From assembly GCA_973895155.1 (NCBI GenBank), contig OZ316892.1:8613580-8677579 (forward strand): 64,000 nt of DNA. The letters are read 5' to 3'. The translations under genes were made by a program, and so were the position numbers. Under the pieces are notes generated by a model, which was given only the letters and a program-made list of their open reading frames with translations, ran no database searches and was not told the DNA's origin. This document shows, one piece after another, positions 840 to 50,500 of the stretch. Source of the stretch: Marsupella aquatica. Its lineage: Eukaryota; Plantae; Marchantiophyta. Positions within the stretch are counted from its first letter, which is position 1. The number at the start of each line of letters is the position of its first letter.

Positions 840-3800
840 TCAAAATGGAAGAACATTTCTATTTAAATCCTTTATGTCTTGTACATAAGAGGCTGAGAAT
901 TGCCTTAGCTGACTTTCCAGATAAATACTAGGGTATACTGAAGGCCACATGCCAACATTTGACACCTCACTTAGGCAAATAGGACTCATTCTAACCATAC
1001 TTGACTTCTTCTCTTCTACAACTTTACTAACATCCTGGCCATGGGCCTTCTTCTGAATAGGTGGTTTGGGAGCTTGTTTCACAGGAGCCTTTTTCTGCCC
1101 AACTGGTTTCACCTTTGCAAGTCGTCTTGCATCTTTTTTCATCACCTGTGTTGCAGACGAAGTTGCACATCGATCTCTATTCTCAATGTCAACATTTTTT
1201 GCCTTCCGACTGCTAACCTGTTTTGTAGGCTTCTTGTAACGCCCCATTGACGCTGTGAGATGCCAATCGTGCTCCTGGTTCAGATCCAGACTTGCCAACG
1301 CTGCCTTGTCAAGTTTTTGCTGATCTGACTCTCGCACTGTAACAATTCTGACAAAGGGAGCTGCATTCACTGGGGCCTCAGTCAAAGTTGAGCTTCTCTG
1401 TGAATTTGGTAAACGCCTTCCCCTCTTCCACATCTTGTCCACAAAAGACTCTTTCCTTTTCAAGCTGCGGTCTGCCCTAGGTACAATTGCAAATGCATGT
1501 GGATTTGGCATCTTCGGCAATGGAGTACTAGGCCCAATTTGTACAAAGTCATATCTAGCCCCAAGAGAAAAGATCTCATCTCGTAATTTTAGCAAGCCAG
1601 TCATGCCAATGCTATTCAAATGAGGAATGCTCTCAACTTTACCATAAATCTCCTTTAAGACTTTTTCATAATGCCCATAGCTAAAAGTCGGATCCTCCTT
1701 TTCTGGCTCACAATCCTCCAGTAGTGTCTCACAATCCTCCAATACAGGCTCTTCTACATTTCCCTGGTCTGAATCATTGCTGGCTGGATGTCTGATTGGC
1801 AAAGTCACACTAGCCACTTCCATATTAGGCTCTGGCCACTGTGCCCTCTCAAATTTGAGCCCACCCACCATAGTGCCATAGTGAGTTCCATAGGTTTGAA
1901 GAATCTTGGACTCACACATGCCACTCATAAGCAACAATTTTATCTGTACATCAATAGAGAAACACAAGTAATATGAGACATTGTCATGATAATGTGTTTC
2001 ATATTTCATATGAAATTACAGTTGTGGCTAGGTAAGATATAAATTCACCTGATGTTTACAGGTATTTCCCTGCATGTTGGATCCACAGGTGCACATGCAA
2101 GTATCATCGAGGTATCCTTCAAGGACGTGCCACTCTCCTGGCTTCTTCTGGCTACGAACAAATGCAACATTGTTGCCTTCCTCATACTTGACATCATCTA
2201 CAGGAATGCTCCTTGCCTTCAAGATTGCTTTCCAGATTATGTCTTCAATTTTCCGATTTCTGACCCGCCCTTGCCACTTCATACAAGACATACACCAATA
2301 GTGGTGTTCAAGATGGTTAATCAATTGTTCTACTAGCCAAACAACCTTCCGCCCTACCTTAGTAGATTTCTCTTCCCGCAAGTATCGCTTCAGAGTTCCA
2401 TGTCATCTCTCAATTGCCCCATTGGTGTTCTGGTTGGCATGGTTGAAGCTCCTGAAGTTTATAACCCACTTACTGATCTTACAATGCCAGTATGTTCTAT
2501 AATACTCTACAAACAGTGGTTGCTCATCTCCCCATGATGCCATGAACCGGAGGGACTCTTCGACAGGGTCTGTGAAAGAAAACAACACACATGAAATAAG
2601 CCAGAGCCTTCTTTGTGAAAGAAAATTCTGGAGACAAATAGGGTCAGAGTTTACCTTTGTTTTTCTGGTACATGAGGTCTCCAAGCTCTTTATTCATTCT
2701 GGCGCGGGAATGGGGATCTCTTACTTTTTTCAGTATGTTTTTAGTCCATGCTCTCCTCACATGCCACACACATAAAGTGATTGGAACACCTGGCCAAACC
2801 TCACTGCCAACACAAATGGAGTCAGATGATATAATACAATGACAAGATGCTTTAATACTGGAATTTTTAGGCAACTATGTTTGGGTGAAATTACCTTAAC
2901 ACATTTTGCTCTTCAGCTGCACAGTCCACTATAAAACAAGCCGGAGCCCATGTCTTGTCCAGGCGTAGGTCATCTTCTCTGGTTCTTTCCATGGTTACCT
3001 TTACAGCAGTCAGAACTTGTAGTAAATCTCTCTCTCTTTGTGGGTCTCCATTAGAGCCCAACATGTTGAAATTCCATTCTGGAATTCATCAAAACAGAGC
3101 ATAGTGTACAAAGAATACTGTACATGCACACAGCCAAGGTTAGAATCACCACTTAAAATTTTCAAAACAGTAATATAAGTCAACATGGAATAGAAATAAA
3201 ATTTTAATGAGTATCACTAACCTCATACTCATTCACACCAAAAGTTGCATCCATGGACACAGCACTACCATGCCCAAGAGTGGCCATTTTTTCCAGTTGC
3301 CACTCAGTTGCAAACACCAACAGAAAAGGAGTTTGTGTCTTCTCATCCCTCTCTTGGTATAATAACACTTGACAACCATTAGCTTGCACCCACAATTTGC
3401 ATCCCAGAGCATCATCACTCGCCCAATGACCTTTCCGATTGTTAATGGCTTTCTTGACATTTTGAATGTCCTTCAAATCTAGTCCCATGTCCCTTGTCCA
3501 GACTACATTGGCTCTGTCATCACTGAACCTCTTTCTATGCTCACGTAGCTCTTCCCACTGGGCCTTCAGAACTCCCAGTTCAGTGACTCCTGTTCGCAAG
3601 AGCCTTTCAATGCTCTCACAAAGGTCAATGGATATTCTGGGGGCAATGTGAGCCCCCACATCCCAAGCAGATCTGTCCTCCCAACCATGACAAAAATTCC
3701 CTGTATTATCAACATGTTTGAACTCTGTGAATTTCAACAGGCAAGCATTGGGCCTTTCCATCTCCTTGAAATTCGCTGAAAAACTGAATCTACAGCCTCT

Positions 3801-4184
3801 CCTAAAAGATGCTCCAGTATGTGTAGTTTGTCGTAGTGGTTTCTCTCCATTTTGAAGAACTCTAGTTTCTGGTAGATCCTCTTGTATGTCTCCCCTAGCA
3901 TCTTTTGGTCCATAACAACACAGATACCTTATGGTCAACCAACCACGTTCTTTGTTTCTTACTACTGTTTCTTTTATTTTCAGGCAAGTGTTAAATTTCT
4001 CACGACATTCCTCCCCTTTCAGGAAATCTTTGAGCCTGGATTTTGGAATCCAAGCTTCATTTTTAAACCAGGTCAAATGATCAGAAGTAAACTTCCCTGG
4101 TGCTGGAATCTGGACTTGGTCACATTGTAATGCACCATAGTGACGTCTTGATTTTATGACATTCGAAGCATTCCCATCAGACAT
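840..4184 (-). pseudogene. Mutator-like (MULE) DDE transposase with SWIM zinc finger, spliced and decayed
   Basis: Successive minus-strand segments give SMDATFGVNE (first D), ACFIVDCAAEE (second D, ~2910-2945), LCVWHVRRAW (CxxH), NTNGAIER*HGTLKR (E, with TGG>TGA stop at 2403-2405) and CMCTCGSNMQGNTCKH (SWIM). Frameshift in an AG run near 3030. Element termini not identified. Confidence 0.88.
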
Positions 4185-4452
4185 CTGACATTGAAAAATA
4201 AAAGTGTAAGGGCTAGTACTTGCAATTCAAAGAAACAAAGCATTTCTAATCAGAAATTCCAGTTATTATTCTATTTCATTTACATCCAGTCACTTACTCT
4301 CTGTAAATCTCAAAAATTTTAAGCATGCAACAGGCTCTCATCATTCACTGACATACAGTCACTCAATATGTTCACACAAATATTATTTTCCGTTAGAATA
4401 GAACACACAGGGCACATAATTTGCATTACTCACAGTTATTGACATCATTGCG

Positions 4453-11637: not shown

Positions 11638-12490
11638 TCTTTCCAAATTTCTTGAAACACCCAACTTTGATATACATACGTCTGGTAACACTTTCCAAAT
11701 TTCTTGAAACACCAAACTTTGATATACATACGTCAGTGGACAAGATTTATTACAATTACGAATTAGAAGCGAATCATAGGCAGTAATTTGTTTTCCTTCT
11801 TTCATTCTTTCATTCTTTCAAGTAGTGGTTCATTAGGCATTGGACTCTGGGTACTTTTCTCCTTTCTGTGAGTAGGGGCTAGGCATGGGACTCTGGGTAC
11901 TTTTCTCCATTCGGTGAGTAGGGGCAGGCATGGGACTCTGGGTGGCTTCAATGTGTAAACGATCACAATGGCACTCATAATCCTGTGCATGCAAATGTGT
12001 AAACCATCACAATGGCACTCATAATCCTATGATCCTTGTGGGATTATGAGTGAGTTATTAAACCCTAAACCCTAAACCCTAAACTAAACCCCTAAACCCT
12101 AAACCCTAAACCCCTACATACGTCAGTGGACAAGATTTATTACAATTACGAATTAGAAGCGAATCATAGGCAGTAATTTGTTTTCCTTCTTTCATTCTTT
12201 CAAGTAGTGGTTCATTAGGCATTGGACTCTGGGTACTTTTCTCCTTTCTGTGAGTAGGGGCTAGGCATGGGACTCTGGGTACTTTTCTCCATTCGGTGAG
12301 TAGGGGCAGGCATGGGACTCTGGGTGGCTTCAATGTGTAAACCATCACAATGGCACTCATAAGCCATAGTGCCATTGTGATCATTTACACATTTGCATGC
12401 ACAGGATACACATTATGAGTGCCATAAACCCACAAGGATTATGTGTAAATGATCACAATGGCACTCATAAACCCACAAGGATTATGGGTG
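11638..12490. repeat. Patchwork of direct and inverted duplications
   Basis: ~250-bp duplication (11725-11980 vs 12115-12362), smaller tandem units (ttccaaatttcttgaaacac.., gcatgggactctgggt), and an inverted copy (12368-12407 is the reverse complement of 11980-12018). Confidence 0.92.
12059..12116 (-). repeat. Interstitial plant-type telomeric repeat (TTTAGGG)n, ~8 units with variants
   Basis: taaaccctaaaccctaaaccctaaactaaacccctaaaccctaaaccctaaaccccta on the plus strand. Confidence 0.93.
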
Positions 12491-16650: not shown

Positions 16651-17059
16651 ATAATGCACATAAAAATTTGAGTGACTTTTCAGTAAGAAACAAGAAAAAG
16701 TGAATCCCTCAAATAGAAAATTCAGATTAAAAGGTCATCCAAGAAGTGGTTGTTATGGAAGGCCAAAAATATAAGTTCTTGAGTTATATTAGATTCTACT
16801 CATAGATATTTTGTTTGTAACACCATATAAGATTTTGTTATCATCTTGAGATCTTGACTAAATTTAATTGTTTTTTGTGTATGGTAAAACTATATTTAAT
16901 TTTTACTTTTATTATATTTATGGTGTTTTGTATAATCCCCTCCTCAGAAAAAGGGGTGCATTATGGAGAATTAATGCACTCAAATATACAAAGAGAAAAG
17001 TCATGAAAGGCTTTATGGGCATGGAAATGGGTGCAAAGGAGCGTATTTTTTAGGTGCAA

Positions 17060-17289
17060 ATTTTGCCAAATTACACCTCCCCAAAAAAGTGTTTTCCACT
17101 TTTGGCTAGCATTTGCTAGATTTTTTTATGTCATTTGTCACTTTTCCACCTAAGCATGAACCCCATTGGCCAGAATCCAACTCTCATCCCTAAATCTAGG
17201 GATATCTGATGGCAGGATGTAATCCATGAAAATTTGACAAAGAATCTTCCTTGCATCTTTTCCCTTAGACGAGCTGACATTGGCCACAC
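17060..17289 (+). repeat. Dispersed repeat interrupted by the retroelement; continues at 27141-27165
   Basis: Aligns with the uninterrupted diverged copy at ~27750-27990 (ccccatt.gccagaatc.aac..tcatcc.taaatctaggga.atctgat...gacatt...ac.ctggc.aaaaa). Confidence 0.8.
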
Positions 17290-17648
17290 TGTCATGCCGA
17301 GGGACAGTGCCTCTTATGCACATCGGCATGTCCCTCGCATGCCCGCTAGGTATGTAGTTAGGGCTAGTGTACTACTTGAGTTAGCGACATGTTCTTATAG
17401 CAAATGCCAAGCGTTCTTGAAGCAAATGCGCTTGTTGGTGTGACGCCAGGACTTTGTTTACTTAGGGCATGTCTTTCTTTGTGGGGTTTTCAGTTCTTCT
17501 TGAATCGCTGTTGACAGAGCTCAAACAGTGCTCGTCGGTTCCGTACACGGGATTCACACAGTGATTCGTTAGATGCTCCCGGCCGATCTTGGCATTTCAC
17601 CGGTTTTCAATTCGATTTCAGTACGCTTGTTTCTCTTACGCCTTTTAT
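17290..17648 (+). repeat. Terminal repeat A1 (359 bp)
   Basis: Matches 26606-26964 with ~11 substitutions by eye. Confidence 0.97.
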
Positions 17649-17660
17649 TCAAGAAGAACT
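17647..17660 (+). promoter_or_regulatory. Self-priming (Tf1-like) primer binding site
   Basis: attcaagaagaact at the end of A1 is the perfect 14-nt reverse complement of agttcttcttgaat at 17492-17505 inside A1. No TGG-starting tRNA-type PBS is present. Confidence 0.75.
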
Positions 17661-19387
17661 CTTGAGATAGCAGTGAGGGGAAGAAGATTGCTTGTGGCGG
17701 TTTCGATAATTTATGGTGAAATCATTGCAATTTCTTCAACGAACATCGGAGCAACGAGTTGGAAGTTGTGGGTTTATGTTGTTATGTGTATATTTAAGTG
17801 TATACACATATCAATGCTCCCGAGGAGGTCCGGATTTCATTTTCTGGTTTCATCCCCTTTGCTCCTTCTTACTGTCACGACCGCTTGCTGCCTCGACTGC
17901 TTTTGGGGTCGTTTCGCATTCCCGGCCACGGCTACCGGCGAGTTTCCCTCGACTACCGCGCGATCACCTCGCGACTACCTCCCGAGCGCATAGAGCCACG
18001 GGTCCGTTTGCTTTCGCCTTTTTCCGATCGCGACCTACTGCCACCCAATTTTTCTTCCCGGCCGTTGTTTCTTCTCGCCTTCTCGCCTTCCCTCGCAGTT
18101 ATTGTCGCGAGCTCGAACCTGCCTGTGTATACAAATACGACATTCATTAAATTACCCCTGGGCGCGCATAGGGCCGCACGCCCGCCCTTTCGAGCTTCGC
18201 TCTTCCAGTCCTCCCGCACATAGGACATTGTGCCTTGTCTTAAAGGGGGTCCCGGTTTTCTTTTGCCTCCTCCAGGCCTCGTTCCAGGCCTCAACCTTCC
18301 GCTGCCAGCATTCATAGGGGGGAGATAGAGCCGAGGCAGCAGCGCAAGGAGTGGGCACGAGGCCCTATGCTACATTAAATGGAGGGGGGAAGTACATAGA
18401 CTCCTTCCCTCAGGAGTCCTTTTGCCAGGCAGTTAGGCACGGAGGCCTATGAAGCATTAAATCAGGGGGAGGGGGAGCGAGTGCCAGGAGAGGGCACAAG
18501 GCCCTAAGCAACATTGAAGCAGGGGAGGGGAGTACACTCGACTCCTCTCATGGGAGTCTTTTGCCAGGGCACTAGGCCCAAATTGCATTAGAGGAGAGGA
18601 GGGGGGAGTTCGTAGCCCTTTTCGGGAGCACATAAGATGGGGCACAAAGCCCTATGGAGGGCTCATGCCATTAAGAGGGCCCATCATTTCTGCTCTTTCG
18701 CCTCTTCCTTTGCCACCCGACTGTCAGTGCCCGATTCTCCCTTTTTCGGCTATTTTCCACCTCTCGACGTCTTCTTTCTCCCTGCCACCGGCCTCGGTGT
18801 ATACACATACGGGAGTGCATAGGGCCGCGTGCCCTCCCTACTCCCTTCGACACTTTTTCCGGACGCGACCTGCTTCCGGCCTAGTTTTCCTCCCGGTCTC
18901 GGTGTATACACATAAGGGAGGGACCTTTCCGCCATTTTTGTTGTATTATTCCTTTTTATTTTGACCCTCTTGGGCCGGTATACACATCGGGGCCAATTTC
19001 ATTCTCTTTGGCCCTTACCTCACGCCGTTTATTTCATTTGTGGGTTTCATTTCCTAGCCTTGGGGTTGTCACTCCTTTTCTTATCAGTTTCTTTCCCATC
19101 AGCACCCCGGGTTAGCATGCAGCATGTCAGCAGAGGAGCCAAGTCGTAGCAACACATCGCCACCGACACCCAGGTACCATTTACGGAGTGATCCATGACC
19201 ATTGGTGCCAATTTCATTGGAGTCTCGGCAATTTTGACAACGTCAACAGACAACAGCAGCACCCACACCACGCAACCCTTCTGTTACATTTGGCGGTCGC
19301 TTCACCACTACCCCAAAGCCTGTTATTGTTTCTTTGCCCTTTACTCCTTTTGCATCAGTGGTTGTTCCAGCTTCACCGACATACAGC

Positions 19388-21193
19388 ATGGACGCCAGCC
19401 ACTCATCTGGCTGCATTGAACGCTTCAGTGGGCGGCCAGGCACTGTTTCTTTGCGTGAGTTCAAATCCACTTTCTACACCGTCATTTACGAATTGGAGTT
19501 GAAGTACGGCAGCAATTTCACAAATGCTTTTGCATTTAAGCAACTAGCCAGGTATGTGCACCATGAGACTTTGGATGTGTATGAGCAGCACTCTCAACGG
19601 CTGCTTGCTGTCACACAATTGCCTAACCCTGCCTATGCCAGTGCAATTGCGGCAGCATCATAATTGGCCTTACAGAATGCCATTGCAGCCCATGCTGCTG
19701 CTCCTGCCACTTCCCCTCCTACTCCACTTCCTACCACAGTGCCAGTTACTCTCATTGTCTTGGCACAGGCTACATCAGGCATTTCTCCCACCATTGATTC
19801 CCCTGCCTTTGCTGATCCAGTGGCTGAGTTTTTCCAGGTTCTTGAATTGGAATTCCCAATCAAGAGTGCTGACAAAATCATGCAGTTGGCCACCTTTGTG
19901 AGGCAGCGCGATGAAACCTTGAAGATGATGTATCGTCGGCTTCTCAAGCTGAAGGAGGACACCCAGAGCATCACTGACCTGGAAGTTGCTCATCGCTATC
20001 TTTACGCATTGGAGGGCACACCAGCTCTCCATTCGCAAGTGTTGCAGCAAGTATTCTCAGAGTTTGGAGACAGCTACACCCTGCTCAATGTCTATGACAC
20101 TGCTGAGAAACTTGAGTTGGCCCATGCACATTATGAGGCCAGTATTGCACGTCCACCGCAATCCAGGTACCAGGCTGCTGCCCCTACACTGGCCACCCCT
20201 TCCCGTGTGCCACAGTATGGTTCCAAGACCAAGCCAGCCCATGCTGCTTTCATGCTGCCATCTTGCAACTACTGTGGTAACCCCAATCACAAGGCTAATA
20301 AATGTGATATTGTTGCTGAGGACCTGTCTTGCGATTTTTGCGGGAAAGTGGGCCACTTGGAGGCAGTTTGTTTTACCAAATTCCCAGAGAGGAAGCAGCT
20401 ACGACAGCAAACCCCTCCTCCTGCTCCTACTTCCACTCCCCCACCAGCTAGGAGGGCTCCTATTGCCTCAGTTGCTCCTCCTTCCAGTGGCAAATCACCT
20501 CGTGCCACCAAATCGCCCAAGCAGCCACGGAAGCAACCAGCTCAGAAGGAGGCTCACAACGCACAGGCAACTCAACTCCAGTCTCTGACTCATGAGGTTG
20601 AGTCCCTACATGCCCAACTTGCCAACATCAAAGGCAAGTCACCTGCCTCTATTGGTCCTTCTCAACCGGCTGGTCACGTGCAACCGATCCCTGGCCCAGG
20701 CATCACTGACAATTCAGCACCTCTACCCCGCTCTTTCTATGGCTTGCCATTTGATGCTCATATGGGTGAGTGTGTGTTGTCCTCTGCTACAAAGCCTGGC
20801 CTTACAGCAGAATTTTCAGATTCATTCTGCCCTTCCTATTTTGCTTACCAACAGGCTAGTGCTGCCTCCCGTATTGCTCCCACACGCCCCATTGTACAGG
20901 CTGATGGTCTTGCTGCTGGTCCTATGACTAGAGCCAGGGGAGCTCGGGCTGTCATGCCCCAATCTTTTCAGCCACTCACACTTGCTGAAGAACGCACCTT
21001 GTTGGTGAGGGGGGATGGAGCTGCAGCTACATCCATTCCACCACCAAGTGCTGCTGACATTTCACAGGGAGTTGTTTCTCTTGAGTTGCTTGAGCATTTC
21101 ACCTCCAGTATGGCACAAAGGATTCTTACAACTCCACTTTTCAGTTGCCATGATTTACAGCTGGATGCTAGAGCTGTCCTCAAAGCGCTATAG
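19388..21193 (+). pseudogene. Retrotransposon Gag with two CCHC zinc knuckles
   Basis: MDASHSSGCIERFSGRPGTVSLREFKSTF...; CNYCGNPNHKANKC and CDFCGKVGHLEAVC; in-frame TAA at 19661 and TAG at 21191. Confidence 0.9.
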
Positions 21194-21459
21194 GGTTCAC
21201 TGCATTCTTCATCAGCCCCTGTGATACCAGTTTTGGAGGTCCAATCTCATGTACATACTGGACCTTCTTCTTCTCCTTTACATGTTTCTGGTCCTGGCTA
21301 TGTTGTTGAGTGGAAAGACCATGGACACTAACTCCCTTCACAAGGTACCTCATCATTTGCCGAGAGTGGTGCCTAGTGACAGGACTTCAGTTTCCACCAC
21401 CATTGCCATTGTTGACAACAGGAATTCAATGGTCAAGTTGGAGGGTCACACTCCTCAGG

Positions 21460-21800
21460 TGGTCATGCTAGACACAAGTGCTTAACCAGTGATATTGGGC
21501 ATTCAGTTTGCCAAGAAGATGGGACTGTTGACTGATCATTTATAGCAATCCAAGTGGCACATTCGAACTGCTAGTGGCACTGTGGAGGATGTGCTGGGTG
21601 AGAGTTCTACTTTACTCACTCTCACTTTTAATGGAGGTACAGATCAGGAACTGCATTTCCCAGTCAGATGTTTGGTTACCAATGCCACTACGTATGATGT
21701 GCTCATTGGCCAGGAGGCTTTGTTCCCACCAGGTTTTACCATTGACAACTGGCATGAGCATGCATACTACAGAGTTGATTGGCATACTGATGGCTCACAC
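21460..21800 (+). pseudogene. Retropepsin-like aspartic protease domain
   Basis: VMLDTSA*PVILG (decayed D[T/S]G motif), IRTASG flap, YDVLIGQEAL; two in-frame stops. Confidence 0.8.
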
Positions 21801-22133
21801 TTGGGCTACATTCCACTTGATTTGCATGGTGCCCATACACCTATGGCTCACCACTGTGTGTTGAAAGCAGTGCACACAGCTACCGATGTCAACCACCCAT
21901 TGTAGGATTGGATTGAGGAGGATGACGATGAGGTGGCTGCTGCACATGCTGCTGCACGTATAGCAGCACTTTCCAACAACGTGGATCATCAACCAGAGTT
22001 CGTACAACGGCTCCAAGCAGCCCATGGACTTTTGGTGGCTGCATTGCGCAAGTTTGAAGACCTTGGGCAGCACAATGGACAGCCGATAGCCCCAATCTTG
22101 AGCGCACCAGTTACATGGACTCCTGCTCCGGAT

Positions 22134-23070
22134 GGCCTTACATTGCTTGAGCTTTTTGGTGGCATTTCTATAGGCCCGGAAGCTCTCCTACAGTCCGGCA
22201 TGGTGGTGAAGCAGTACATCTACGTGGACATTGATCCAGGTGCAAGGCAAGTGGCTGAATCCCGTTTGCTGGAATTTTCAGAACGATTTCCCCAGCAGTT
22301 TCCACACAATGCATGGAAGTCTGCATTTTCTTTCTTCCCTCCAGATATCCAGCTTGTCCAGCACCGACACTTAACCCTTCTTGGTTCCCTTGATTTGATC
22401 ATAGCTGGTTGGGAATGCCAAGGGTTTTCAGCTGCTGGTCATGGTGTTGGATTGCATGACTCTTGTTCTAGCCTTTTCACAGCATTGGTTCAGATTCTCA
22501 CCTGGGCTCAATCCCTTTATCCTGCTGTTGGTTATATCATTGAGAATACTCCATCTCAGTTTGACCAGCGTCCACAGGTCAAAGAGGATTTCAGTGTGGT
22601 CCAGCACTACTTGGGACCACCCCTTCTCATTGATGCAGTGCACTGTGGTTCTTATGCACATCGTCTTCGTAACTTTTGGACTAACCTTGCACCACCTTCC
22701 TTGTTGGAGTTGGCTCTTCACCACACATCCAGGGACACTAACCTCACAGTGGACCAGATTTTGGATCCTGACAGTTCTTGCCAACCAGTTACACAGCAAG
22801 AGCCAGCATCTTGGTATCCAGCCAATACCATTGGACAGCCCCGTGCTGCTTGGCCTACATTTGTATCCTTTCCAGGTGCACATGCTTTTTAGGGTGATGG
22901 TCCTGGCCTGGTTTTTTGACATTCTACCGGTACATGGGATGAACCTAGTCCTGAGGAGAGAGAACGGGCTATGGGCTTCCAACCCGGTACTACAGGTCAC
23001 ACCAAAATCACCAGGTTGGCCAGGAATGCTTTACTTGGCAGGGTAATGGATCTCAATGCTCTCACTTGGC
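22134..23070 (+). pseudogene. DNMT3-like C5 DNA cytosine methyltransferase domain embedded in Pol
   Basis: Motifs in canonical order: I LLELFGGIS, II YVDID, III PDI, IV DLIIAGWECQGFS (catalytic Cys), VI YIIENT, VIII DAVHCGSYAHRLRNFWTNL, IX EERERAMGFQPGTT, X TRLARNALLGRVM. Same frame as PR and RT, with TAG and TGA stops at ~22890-22920. Confidence 0.92.
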
Positions 23071-23439
23071 TTCTGGTCACTTGCATCCTTTTTCAGATGT
23101 ACATTCATTCAGCATCCGGAGTTCCAGCCCTACCACTCCATGGTGCTGTTACATGGCATCCAGACCAGGTGCACTTACCTCTATTCAACACTCATCGCTT
23201 CAGTCCAAGTGTTGGGGGGGAGGATGTCCCTTGTAATGTGGCTGACATTATTTCTGAGTTTCATGGTGTGGACCAACCCAGATCAGCAGGTACAACAGGC
23301 CTTGGAGAGGCCTCATCACCTTATCAGCAGCATGCTAGCAGCTTGGACAATAGAGAGGCTAGCACTTCTGGTTCTTCAAGCATGAGTACATCAGGTCCTA
23401 TTCCTAGTGTTTCCAACTACACATTCATCATGGGCAACC

Positions 23440-24780
23440 ACCTGAGTAAAAGACAGAAGGACCAGCTGCTGAATTTGTTCCTCAAGCATGAGAATGTGTT
23501 TGCTTTCTCTATGAAGGACTTGGGTAAGTGCAAGACTATGCAGTTCTCCATTGAGTTGGCTGATGAAACACCTATCTTCAGGCGGAGACACCGTTTGAGT
23601 AAGCATGAGTGGCAACTAGTGGAGGAGAGGTGCCAAGAGCTCTATGAAGCTGGTCTTATTCAGCCATCTACATCAGATTTTGCAGCAGCTACAGTGATGC
23701 CAGCAAAGAAGGATTCCAGTGGATTGTGGACAGAGAAGCGCATGTGTGGGGACTATAGGCCATTGAACCTGGTCACACCCCAGGATAGGTACCCCATGCC
23801 GCGGCCAGAGGAGCTATTTGACAGCATTGGAGACTCAGACATCTTCACTCTTGTGGATCTAAGGCAAGGCTTCAACCAGATTTTGCTGCTTGCAAAGGAT
23901 CGCAAGAAAACAGCTTTCCATGGTAGTAACCAACTATGGGAGTGGTTGGTGATGCCATTTGGCTTGAAGAATGCGCCCATATTCTTTCAAAGAGTCATGG
24001 ACCAGGTTCTGCAAGGTGCTGAGTTTTTGAAATGCTACATTGATGATGTGTTGGTCCACAGCAAAGGATTTGACCAGCATCTACTTGACCTTGAGGAGCT
24101 ATTCATGAGGCTTAAGAAGGTGAACCTAAAGATACACCCCAAGAAGTATGAATTTGCTGTCAGATCAGTAGTATACCTTGGGCACCGCATTCTTCCAAAT
24201 GGAACCATGGCTCACCGGGCCAAAGTGGTATCCATCTTGGAAATGCCCACTCCTACTGATGTTCACACTCTTAGGAGCTTTATTGGGTTGTGCAATTACT
24301 ACCGGATCTACATCAAAGATTTCAGTACCATTGCACATCCATTGTACTCTTTGTTGAAAAAGAATGTGACTTGGACATGGAGTACAGATGCTGAGGCAGC
24401 ATTTGCCACTTTGAAGGAGAAGCTCTCAGAATACCCGGTGCTTAGAAGACCTGATTTCATTTCAGCAAGGTCTTTGTGCTACACACAGATTGGAGTACCC
24501 TTGGGATTGGTGCCATTCTGGGCCAGCATGATGAGGAAGGTAAAGAGTACGTCATTGCCTATGCATCCAGGAGCAACAATCAGGCAGAGAGTCATTATTC
24601 TTCTTATGAGGGTGAATGCCTTGCTGTTGTGTGGGCTATCATACATTATAGGCCCTACCTCTATGGGACCAGGTTTGTCCTCTACACCGACCACCAGCCC
24701 TTGAAGTGGTTGATGACCAACGACAAGCTTATTGGCAAGCTTGCTCGATGGGCGCTCATACTCATAGGCCTGGTGTGACA
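23440..24780 (+). pseudogene. Reverse transcriptase and RNase H
   Basis: RMCGDYRPLN, DLRQGFNQI, MPFGLKNAP, YIDDVLV, LRSFIGLCNYYR; RNase H HTDWS..YEGECLAV..YTDHQPL. A 5-bp duplication (atttc, 24454-24463) causes a frameshift, and there is an apparent short deletion near 24760. Confidence 0.97.
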
Positions 24781-25099
24781 CATCAAAATGCTGACACTAT
24801 GTCTCGCAGCCCTTTGATTGCCTCTAATGATTCCTCAGATGCACGGCAGGATTTTGACCAGGTTTCCATCCTGCCTACATTTCATGCATCTACCTATCTT
24901 GCTTTGCTGCCATGCTACGTTGTTGACCAACCTGTGGTGGACATATGGGAGGACAACGACACTCTGAGATTTTTGCAGCATGGGGAGTACCCCATACATG
25001 TTACTGCTGCCCAGAGAGACCGAATTCAGCAAAGGTCCAAGCGCTACTTGTGGAAGGGAGATCATCTCGTGCGCTGCTTGCCAGACAGGGAAGTGGTGG

Positions 25100-26180
25100 T
25101 TCCACCCATTCATGAGAGGGTTGGCCTTATCCGTAAGGTACATTCTGAGCTTGGTCATTTTGGTGTTAAGAGGACTTACAGCCTCTTGGTCCCTCATTAT
25201 CATTGGAGAGGCATGCATGGCCAGGTTCGAGATGTTATTGCCCGGTGTGAACAGTGTGATAGGGTGAGGACTTCTTTCACATCTCGGCAACCCACACTTC
25301 ATCCACTCCCTATTCAGGGCATGTTTTATCGCTGGTCATGTGATTTGGCTGGAGAATTACCCCTCACGTCTCGGGGTAATCTCTACATCATGATCATGAT
25401 AGAGCATTTCTCCAAGTGGATAGAACTTGTGGCATTTCCGGATAAGACCTCCCATAGCACCAGCCAGGCATTCCTACAACAAATTTTCGGCCGCTTTGGA
25501 GCTTGTGCAGAATGTCTCACTGACCAGGGCTCAGAGTTTAGAGGAGAGTTCCAGGAGCTGCTTGATCAGGCCCTCATTGATCATCGCCGGACATCACGAG
25601 ATCACCCACAGGCAGATGACTTGGCAGAGCGCATGGTTAAGACATGCAACAAGGGCCTCCGGAAGATCTGCCTCACCAAAAACAAGGAGGATTGGGACCT
25701 GGCCTTACCCTACATTGCCATGGGGTATAGGATGTCCAGACATGCATCACTGTCTAACTTTTCTCTCTACTTCTTGTTGTTTGGTCGTCACCCAGTTCCA
25801 CCTTCTGCTATTGCTGCTCACATGCTTTAGGTGGTAGACTTGGATTCAGCTGTGACTTGGTCTGATGTGATCTCTGAGAGGGCTGCCCTATTCAGGAGGG
25901 TTATGCCCATGGCCATGGAGAATTTGGCCATTGCACAGCACAGGGACACACTACGTTATGCACACACACGAGGGGGCACTTTTCAGCCCAAGGTCAGGAA
26001 GTTTGATGTGGGAGATTTTGTGTACTTGCAGCGGCAAGCTAACGACACCCTGGACACCTCTACCAGTCGTACTATTCTCAGGGTTAAAGCTATTCGACCA
26101 TCTGGAGTGCTAGAGTTACAAGGGGCAGATGGGCGCACAATTGCAGACAATGCCAAGAATTGCGCCCCTTGTCATCTGCC
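25100..26180 (+). pseudogene. DDE integrase
   Basis: HHCC (HSELGH...CEQC), catalytic WSCDLAG / LTDQGSEF / LAERMV, C-terminal VGDFVYL; TAG at 25828. Confidence 0.96.
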
Positions 26181-26235
26181 TAACCTGGATCCCACCATTA
26201 TGACTTCTACTTGGATTCCACCTGTGGACTACCCT

Positions 26236-26388
26236 TGCAAAGTGTGTTTGTGAATTGATGATGCTGACCAGATGCTGCTGTGTGACAATTGCAATGGAGG
26301 GTACCATCTTTTTTGCCTTCGGCCTGAACTTACCCAGGTGCCAGAAGGGTTATGGTTTTGCCCTTCCCGTGCTCCACGTGCTACCTGA
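26236..26388 (+). pseudogene. PHD finger at the integrase C-terminus
   Basis: CKVCL*IDDADQMLLCDNCNGGYHLFCLRPELTQVPEGLWFCPSR: C4HC3 spacing with the conserved Trp; last Cys position is Arg (cgt). In frame with the integrase. Confidence 0.9.
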
Positions 26389-26420
26389 ATTTTCTTCAGC
26401 CCTCCTTTTGGATGTGGTCT

Positions 26421-26427
26421 GGGGGGG
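26421..26427 (+). promoter_or_regulatory. Polypurine tract (G7) immediately before B1
   Basis: ggggggg directly abuts atacagagg, the first bases of B1. Confidence 0.7.
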
Positions 26428-26603
26428 ATACAGAGGTTTACACCTCCACTACGTACATACCACTTCATTTGCTTTTTCTTGGCACTTGTGAATGTGATTG
26501 GACTTTTTCTATGCATGTTGGTTGCTAGCAGCTTGCACATATGCCTTGCCGGTGACTTATATGTTTTCGATACACTATGGCTACGATACTATATGTCACG
26601 ACA
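26428..26603 (+). repeat. Repeat B1 (176 bp)
   Basis: Matches 26965-27140 with one substitution; ends tgtcacgaca. Confidence 0.97.
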
Positions 26604-26605
26604 AC

Positions 26606-26964
26606 TGTCATGCTGAGGGACAGTGCCTCTTATGCACATCGGCATGTCCCTCGCATGCCCGCTAGGTATGTAGTTAGGGCTAGTGTACTACTTGAGTTAG
26701 CGACATGTTCTTATAGCAAATGTCAGGCGTTCTTGAAGCAAACGCGCTTGTTGGTGTGACGCCAGGACTTTGTTTACTTAGGGCATGTCTTTCTTTGTGG
26801 GTTTTTCAGTTCTTCTTGAATCGCTGTTGACAGAGCTCAAACAGTGCTCGTTGGTTCCGTACTCGGGATTCACATAGTGATTCGTTAGATGCTCCCGGCC
26901 GATCTTGGCATCTCGCCGGTTTTCAATTCGATTTTAGTACGCTTGTTTCTCTTACGCCTTTTAT
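26606..26964 (+). repeat. Repeat A2 (359 bp)
   Basis: Copy of 17290-17648, separated from B1 by the dinucleotide ac. Confidence 0.97.
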
Positions 26965-27140
26965 ATACAGAGGTTTACACCTCCACTACGAACATACCAC
27001 TTCATTTGCTTTTTCTTGGCACTTGTGAATGTGATTGGACTTTTTCTATGCATGTTGGTTGCTAGCAGCTTGCACATATGCCTTGCCGGTGACTTATATG
27101 TTTTCGATACACTATGGCTACGATACTATATGTCACGACA
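26965..27140 (+). repeat. Terminal repeat B2 (176 bp)
   Basis: Copy of 26428-26603, joined directly to A2 (..ccttttat|atacagagg..). Confidence 0.97.
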
Positions 27141-27289
27141 ACACTGGCTAAAAATTAAAAAAACTTAAAAAATAAAGTGGTGTAAAGGTTAGTGTTGCAT
27201 GGTGTAAACCATGATTTACTAGCTAAATATACGTGTTTTGCACAAGATATGTACTTGAGTATATATATATATACTCTCGCCAAAGATAT

Positions 27290-27610: not shown

Positions 27611-28235
27611 GATAGCCATTGCTAAAACTGTGGGAACATTCTATTATTTTCTGTGCAATGCACGCGTATTACAAAATAGAGAGGAGTAGACAGAAAAGAA
27701 AATCCAGAGAAAAGGATTCCAGGCCAGCATTGTTTTAGTGGCCAAAAAGTTTGCCAGATTTTGCCTCTCCAAAAGCTTACGCCACTTTTGGCAAAAAAGT
27801 GCTAGTTTTTCTCTATCTCATTAGCCACTGTCCCACCTAATCACAGACCCCATTAGCCAGAATCTAACAGTCATCCTTAAATCTAGGGAGATCTGATAGT
27901 CAGGAAAGTATTCCAGGGAAAATCAAATAAATAATATTTTGAGCATCTTCTCCTTTACGTAGTAGACATTCACAACTCTGGCAAAAAAGTAAAAACCTTA
28001 AAGTTTACACTGTTCCAGGCTACTTCCTATTCCATGCTACGTGCTGTTCATCTTGTCCCCATCCCTTTTTTTGGTATGCATTTTCACTTTCAGTTAGAGC
28101 CATCAATTAGAGTCATGGTCTAGAGTCCAGTTAGAGCCCTCAATTAGTCACGGTCTAGAGTCTTCACATTAGGCGGGAGGCCCGAGGAGTAGCTTTTGAT
28201 TTGTGCTTTATTGATTGGATTCACCACACTTGCTA

Positions 28236-49557: not shown

Positions 49558-50500
49558 CTTTTATTTTATTTTATTATTATTTTCAAAAAAACCACACCCC
49601 TAAAAGCAGGGGAGCAAGGAAAGGGGCAAACCCCAACAAACCCCAACAAACCCAAGGAAAAAACCACAAGGGCAGGGGAGGCAACAGAAAAAACAGCCCC
49701 GAAGGCCAAACTAAACAATCCAGAAGGACCACATCCTTCGCCGTTCTCTAGTACCAACCTGACTATGATGACTCTAGCGGAGCTTGCTCCTAGTTCTAAT
49801 CCATTGCGGGTACCTATTAGATCCCTTCGTCATCATTACCAAGAGAAACCGGACTATCAATTTGCGCCCACAACTCAAGCACTACCTAAAGTTGCTCAAT
49901 AGTTTCCTGAAGATGTTTTCCTTTCTTCTGAGAGTGGCAAGTGGTCACCATGGAATTCAAGTGCATTTTAGTGTTGCGGAGCACTACCCATCCAGGAAGT
50001 CTTCCCAAAAACTGAGAATAAGTGGCTTTATTCAGTTCATTCCAGATGCTATGATAGAGTTCCATAAGAATCAGCAATGGTCCTAGTTTCCATTTGTGTT
50101 TCAAGATGACATGGTTAACAACATCAAAGAGTGATCTGTTGTTAAATTGTAAAGCAGGGGAGCCGTGCAGTAGATGTTGGATCTCTTTCCACCTCTTGAC
50201 AACTTCTCCACAGCTGAAGAAAAGGTGTTTGATATGCTCAAATCTCAATTTACATCTAGTGCAAATTCCATGTGAAACCTTCCAATGACTTCCCCTTCCG
50301 TTCGTGTAGAAGCCGTGGTTAAGTAGATTTGGCCTCCACCAATCACATTGCTTGGATTATTTTTTCACAATTTTCCCTCAATTTTCATCATTTGATAATC
50401 TGGTTTTTCCTTAGACATAAAACCTGCATTTTGAGCCATAGATTGGCTCATTTGATAAACGGGCGAGAATGATCAGGCTCCCAATCGGAGGGCTGCGGAA
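49558..50500 (-). mobile_element. 5'-truncated L1-type LINE: zf-RVT remnant, 3' UTR and A-rich tail
   Basis: CTRCKLRFEHIKHLFFSCGEVVKRW (C-x2-C...HLFFxC...W) and ..YHSIWNELNKATY; T-rich tract at 49558-49583 corresponds to an A-rich tail on the minus strand. Confidence 0.8.

Follow-up and report, generated by a model that had tools for sequence, protein, structure and literature searches.

The element that lies between two ACAC repeats in the window, by which we mean the whole stretch of 64,000 nucleotides analyzed here, raises the question of how a retrotransposon whose direct repeats are split into A and B segments primes its cDNA and inserts it into the genome. Its parts follow each other in the order ACAC, A1, primer-binding site (PBS), internal region, G7 tract, B1, AC, A2, B2 and ACAC, and they were delimited as follows.

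17286-17289, plus strand: left target-site duplication ACAC, matching 27141-27144.
17290-17648, plus strand: repeat A1, starting TGTCATG (left integrase end), with the promoter region and an R/U5-like part; from self-comparison and the diverse flanks seen in contigs.
17490-17495, plus strand: TCAGTT, which we take to be initiator-like from the initiator consensus, with A17492 as the predicted +1; from sequence, with no canonical TATA in the window copy.
17492-17503, plus strand: predicted 12-nt self-primer; from complementarity, shuffles and covariation, the pairing going on to 17505.
17649-17660, plus strand: putative PBS complementary to the self-primer; from complementarity, the adjoining 17661-17672 being variable across the family.
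17649-17665, plus strand: local hairpin over the PBS (-5.0 kcal/mol), specific to the window copy; most of the depth of four sequencing runs has changes at 17661 and 17663 that disrupt it.
19238-21905, plus strand: gag-like and protease-like frames, broken by stops; a putative assignment made from position.
21906-22892, plus strand: C-5 cytosine methyltransferase, DNMT3-like (PF00145, E 2e-5; weak DNMT3 structure matches).
22920-24778, plus strand: reverse transcriptase (RT) and RNase H, with a frame break near 24454 (PF00078, PF17917).
24652-26388, plus strand: DDE integrase (H2C2 zinc finger and rve core) with a C-terminal PHD finger and two stops (PF17921, PF00665; PF00628, E 7e-11).
26416-26427, plus strand: G-rich, polypurine-tract (PPT)-like site ending in G7 and adjoining B1; from sequence, with the same G-run before B in the related family M.
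26428-26603, plus strand: repeat B1, starting ATAC and ending CACGACA; from self-comparison.
26597-26612, plus strand: internal attachment-site junction CACGACA-AC-TGTCATG, a near-palindrome with a 2-nt spacer at 26604-26605; from sequence and relatives.
26606-26964, plus strand: repeat A2; from self-comparison.
26965-27140, plus strand: repeat B2, ending CACGACA (right integrase end); its joint with A2 (26964/26965) corresponds to the two predicted cDNA ends.
27141-27144, plus strand: right target-site duplication ACAC, matching 17286-17289.

As judged from its coding content, the element is a Ty3/gypsy retrotransposon with a DNMT3-like methylase, a DDE integrase and a PHD finger. The RT, RNase H and integrase stand in the Ty3/gypsy order, the closest solved RT structure is that of Ty3 (E 4e-48), and the TG...CA ends with their duplication fall within the 4-6 bp of this class; instead of a complete LTR at either end, the element has a permuted one, with A at the 5' end and B-A-B at the 3' end. 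The best PDB matches of the methylase, which were weak (E about 1e-3), were DNMT3A, DNMT3B and DNMT3C, and its domain was matched by tblastn in 40 of 83 loci. A Pfam search of the gag/protease frames at 19238-21905 gave no match, and a weak Asp-protease match (Pfam) was obtained in the relative L081. Pfam searches also gave no tyrosine recombinase match in the scanned frames of the element, which carry the rve integrase instead, and no chromodomain match at the integrase C terminus, where the PHD finger PF00628 is found instead; an identity as Ngaro or PAT was rejected because a DDE integrase is present. The closest named proteins in the integrase search came from two liverworts and from Klebsormidium nitens, whose integrase-PHD protein is 56% identical, which suggests that the host is a streptophyte. 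The window copy is decayed, with stops and a frame break. Elsewhere in the window, a 340-aa frame at 3204-4226 (minus strand) without a Pfam match contains a D-x-T-F-x-x-N-x-Y-like motif, presumably of the kind found in MULE transposases, and a weak zf-RVT match (E 0.0015) at 49886-50356 (minus strand) likely marks a LINE remnant.

The two A copies are 97% identical over 361 nt, and their identity stops at 17648/26964, that is, at the PBS, as had been claimed in the original prediction, whose start of A1 was corrected to the TG at 17290, the two preceding bases being part of the target-site duplication. Part of the element is present in 13 sequencing runs, none recorded as RNA, of which 6 were compared with the window; joints, flanks and variants were read from the contigs of four runs, belonging to two studies. 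Unrelated flanks stand right before 17290 in 14 and 16 contigs of two runs (agreement 0.4), and this varied sequence indicates that insertions begin at TG. The A copies of the window (17290-17648 and 26606-26964) differ at 11 of 359 sites and the B copies (26428-26603 and 26965-27140) at 1 of 176, and at several of the A1/A2 difference sites the family agrees with A2. In each of the four runs the summed contig depth at 17784-19051 was far below that of the coding part, and this long leader may be subfamily-specific. The element is inserted in an older repeat, 17058-17285 and the sequence from 27145 onward being 74% alike to a paralog at 27746-28020, some 600 bases downstream, that is usable as an empty site. 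On this paralog, at about 27958-28000, a 4-bp duplication aligned best by a small margin (score 80 versus 78, 75 and 73). A 2-bp shared core of the recombinase type was rejected in favor of the 4-bp duplication, a choice that is weak from the paralogous site alone and clear from family M.

The segment AGTTCTTCTTGAAT at 17492-17505 was confirmed by direct sequence comparison to be the exact reverse complement of 17647-17660, as originally predicted, and the match extends on neither side; the predicted absence of a TGG PBS also held, no TGG being found after A1. No tRNA gene was found within the 64-kb window. When A1 was dinucleotide-shuffled, at least 13 matched bases against a 26-nt PBS window were obtained in 0 of 5000 shuffles (best 12, once), and in a sliding control across the whole window at least 13 matches were reached by 4 of 2443 windows, i.e. 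the primer site and three windows within a repeat cluster at 11.7-12.5 kb. This cluster (11725-12488) consists of nested direct repeats with a period of about 382-390 and a 40-nt inverted pair, and it is possibly a small transposon cluster. In the minimum-energy structure of the segment from 17492 to 17662-17670, bases 1-12 pair with 17649-17660; with 40 nt past the PBS, a rival structure of the window copy buries the PBS and beats the primer duplex by 13 kcal/mol. All 4 intact family-M copies that were folded, and L081, had the duplex in their minimum-energy structure, even with 60 nt downstream, and the helices flanking this central duplex, compared with the three-duplex "pretzel" of Tf1/sushi, are unlike between families. 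The competing PBS hairpin that had also been predicted is present in the window copy, but about two thirds of the family depth carries changes that affect two of its six pairs, and the relatives lack it. Its reading as a conserved switch was rejected, the differences at 17661 and 17663 being seen in all four runs. Primer and PBS positions do not appear among the 40 listed of 94 variant rows of the window family, a count that does not imply their invariance.

In a metagenome scan 563 relatives were found; the best 80, with an integrase 68-79% identical, were used and named family M. A scan of genome contigs gave 3 loci, one of which (L083, 34%, short) was left out, and two scans of viral contigs gave zero loci. 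The two other genome-contig loci, L081 and L082, form family S, 48-49% identical, with the same domains and an end that reads B-GC-A-B. They represent a complete Gypsy-DNMT-PHD element filed under a cyanobacterial genome assembly, likely as a eukaryotic contamination. The window A and B gave no blastn match in family M, whose repeats were located by comparing its sequences with themselves and by searching with L036.

The compensatory covariation proposed as a check of the primer was observed, since three families with different primers stay complementary to their own PBS. The primer/PBS pair is AGTTCTTCTTGA/TCAAGAAGAACT in the window family (14 paired bases), AGTTTTTCTAGA/TCTAGAAAAACT in family M (15 paired bases) and ATCTTTGTCAAG/CTTGACAAAGAT in family S (13 paired bases, read from the single contig L081, which was apparently collapsed into a circle by assembly). 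In a 16-row alignment, which represents only three lineages and in which pairs 10-12 were scored on misaligned columns for L053, L061 and L081, both sides changed in 7 of 12 pairs; 500 shuffles yielded this 0 times, and slid controls gave 0-1. Read directly, L081 pairs at 13 of 13 bases. Shuffle controls of L008 and L081 gave 0 of 3000 each. The M copies are old (A1 and A2 86-90% alike), fully paired 12/12 primer and PBS were found in only 4 of 16 of them, and the remaining changes in the imperfect copies are mostly G>A or C>T. A TATAA is present in 17 of 18 family-M 5' ends, with the first A of the primer 31-32 nt downstream in all 16 ends in which the primer was located, and in family S a TATAG stands 29 nt upstream of the primer. 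Taken together, the covarying primer and PBS of three families and the TATA 31-32 nt upstream in family M make self-priming of the Tf1 type, from a predicted start site, very probable.

The positions of the PBS and the PPT bound the LTR as B-AC-A, and the TG...CA ends and the duplication fall inside it, at the B|A boundary. Transcription would start at A17492, and RNA bases 1-12 would pair with the PBS and then be cut off, the cut presumably being made by RNase H in the manner of Tf1; with PBS and PPT as starting points, copying of the LTR type would then yield a linear B-AC-A-[internal]-B-AC-A molecule. In agreement with the claim that a primer of about 12 nt sets the cDNA end at 17648, the commonest A|B joint of the window family is exactly 17648->26428 (7, 6, 3 and 6 contigs of the four runs), with rarer +1, +2 and -2 variants. 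The 24 independent A|B joints of family M comprise 12 exact ones, 5 with a single shared AT, 3 with an additional base (in two cases equal to the first PBS base) and 4 that are slightly altered in other ways, whereas the B|A spacer has a length of 2 nt in 23 of the 24 (AC 11, GC 7, GT 3, AT 1, AA 1; GC makes the junction a palindrome). The similarity of B2 in this family was 0.897 to its own B1, 0.864 to other B2 and 0.862 to other B1, and no more than 10 of the 24 B2 copies matched their own B1 best of all; by these values B2 does not appear to be a separate lineage. The variable A|B joint, the constant B|A spacer and the proximity of B2 to its own B1 suggest that A|B is re-made in each cycle and B|A is inherited. 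Two M ends (L017:4841 and L042:3985) stop exactly at the A end and continue in unrelated DNA, as captured linear cDNA would, the A end being the predicted end of the linear cDNA.

These junction statistics suggest that the A end would be joined to the start of B, so that a 2-LTR circle, or a joined molecule equivalent to it, would form. The integrase would then cut at the TG/CA of the internal CA-nn-TG, drop the 2-nt spacer and duplicate 4 bp, leaving A-internal-B-nn-A-B, the footprint that is seen. The DDE enzyme of the IS3-family element IS911 opens circles in a comparable way, at TG/CA ends that abut across a short spacer; that element is a DNA transposon whose junction is newly made by the transposase, whereas the junction of the window element would be inherited. 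In family M, 57 PPT-B starts with enough downstream sequence, from the best 80 of 563 relatives, represent 48 independent ends, of which 23 end in B-A-B, 23 in B and 2 in B-A, and the 13 complete elements comprise 7 A-int-B-A-B and 6 A-int-B. At the TG...CA ends of these complete elements the 4-bp duplication, read by eye for L031 and L034, is exact in 6, has one mismatch in 5 and is absent in 2, and it is exact in the solo A-B L074. Opening of the joined molecule at the upstream CA-nn-TG site would give the form observed in the window, and the A-int-B form could be due to B x B recombination, to the use of both internal sites or to one-LTR circles. An A|B joint that varies like a 2-LTR-circle junction, together with integrase ends inside the LTR, points to the integration of joined or circular cDNA, which we regard as quite likely to be the substrate. 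The complete reading, in which the element primes its minus strand with its own first 12 RNA bases and integrates after its cDNA ends are joined, is likely, and a free 2-LTR circle made by host ligation is proposed tentatively, with some doubt.

Reverse transcriptases can jump end to end, and the main rival to the circle is that, self-priming being real, RT uses the AT common to both segments to jump from the end of A to the start of B, so that no free circle is formed and the integrase opens the new junction. Both in the window and in family M, AT stands at the end of A and again at the start of B, and 5 of the 24 M joints share one AT; nevertheless both AT are kept in 12 of 24, and the gained or lost bases suit end-joining equally. 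Opening of a circle at its other site predicts A-B-A-int-B, and all 18 family-M 5' ends read A-PBS, with B preceding A in none of them, which counts against the circle and could be accounted for by such a jump, but the product of the jump would still carry the second attachment site intact. Since only A-int-B-A-B retains the 3' redundancy required for new copying, a bias toward that permutation would be selected. On balance, the RT jump appears unlikely. A second alternative, in which the duplex is a mere closure of the leader related to packaging or translation and priming is due to a tRNA fragment or another RNA, could draw on the half-tRNA primers known, according to the accessible text of the source, in plant copia lineages (PMC6317226), but no TGG is present, three distinct PBS each follow their own LTR segment, the duplex begins at the TATA-predicted +1 and the commonest cDNA end coincides exactly with its 12th pair, all of which makes this explanation very improbable. 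That the layout and the complementarity are an accident of a single rearranged copy or of assembly, as the decay of the window copy and the collapse of L081 might suggest, was rejected as having a negligible probability, since family M shows the same layout in 7 complete elements and at 23 independent 3' ends, L082 shows it too, the joints recur in four runs, the flanks at 17290 vary in the window family, and the layout is described for KnitGypsy-Dnmt3 in the available part of that report (PMC5890265).

Self-priming itself is known for Tf1/sushi, Tcn1, TAR and some copia lineages, and the accessible parts of those reports describe for Tf1/sushi and the plant Tcn1 features also found here, namely a PBS complementary to the predicted RNA 5' end, an upstream TATA, no tRNA PBS and a Ty3/gypsy RT (PMC4600332, 10.1101/2022.12.06.519325, PMC6317226). 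In contrast, Tcn1 elements carry a chromodomain (100%) and 5-bp duplications (100%), whereas the window element has a PHD finger, a methylase and 4-bp duplications, and the Tf1-type LTR ends in CA right before the PBS, whereas the window A ends in AT and its CA lies inside the LTR (same sources). On the two Tcn1 features, chromodomain and 5-bp duplications, as given in those parts of the reports, the window element would work like Tf1 without being a member of that group. Phygy and Selgy non-chromoviruses, as far as their accessible descriptions go, share the 4-bp duplication and differ in their tRNA-Trp or tRNA-Ala PBS, no TGG-type PBS being present here.

The A1-coding-B1-A2-B2 split direct repeats resemble those of PAT, Ngaro and VIPER, and a circular intermediate has been proposed for DIRS-1; according to the accessible text of these reports, PAT, Ngaro and VIPER use a tyrosine recombinase, in contrast with the DDE integrase, TG...CA ends and 4-bp duplication of the window element (PMC4157794, PMC6681497, PMC7192593). 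The presumed action of the integrase on an internal palindromic CA..TG junction is reminiscent of the foamy-virus and HIV integrases (PMC1180852, PMC1905944), the former of which cleaves palindromic LTR-LTR junctions (PMC1180852). In the retroviral cases, as described in the available parts of these papers, the cleaved site is the circle junction, and its cleavage is a side route, whereas here it is encoded in the LTR, apart from the joint, and is the one used in every integrated copy seen (PMC1180852, PMC1905944). KnitGypsy-Dnmt3 and the streptophyte Gypsy-DNMT3 elements are likewise close by description, with a Gypsy Pol, a DNMT3-like domain and A-coding-B-A-B repeats, the legend of Fig. 4c giving DIRS-like repeats (A-coding-B-A-B) with Gypsy domains (PMC5890265). 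The accessible text of that report is silent on a primer, on attachment sites, on target duplications and on any model of replication, and its main text does not mention the PHD finger that the window element carries (PMC5890265). No description of priming or internal attachment sites in the Gypsy-DNMT3 lineage was found in the literature outside subscription journals, Repbase reports and figures. The repeat layout was already published (PMC5890265), and what is new, as far as the literature covered goes, is the reading of priming and integration.

The primer alone would be a new instance of self-priming, in a lineage without a chromodomain, and its value is that it fixes the cDNA ends. Once PBS and PPT are known, the DIRS-like repeats published for Gypsy-DNMT3 elements, which had lacked an explanation, can be read as a two-LTR product that is permuted and has the integrase ends inside the LTR. 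Such elements have no paired TG...CA LTRs and would thus be missed by LTR finders at the settings given in the accessible part of PMC6317226. A broader proposal, whose truth we consider evenly balanced, is that of a widespread streptophyte lineage of self-primed DDE-integrase elements with attachment sites in the middle of the LTR, which must circularize their cDNA and are biased to the permutation that can be re-replicated. The finding makes it possible to test whether a retroviral-type integrase can regularly use joined or circular cDNA, and it invites a search of PAT, Ngaro and VIPER for this primer signal. If true, the broader proposal would provide a natural counter-example to the rule of linear cDNA as the integration substrate and a model for the origin and priming of split-direct-repeat elements.
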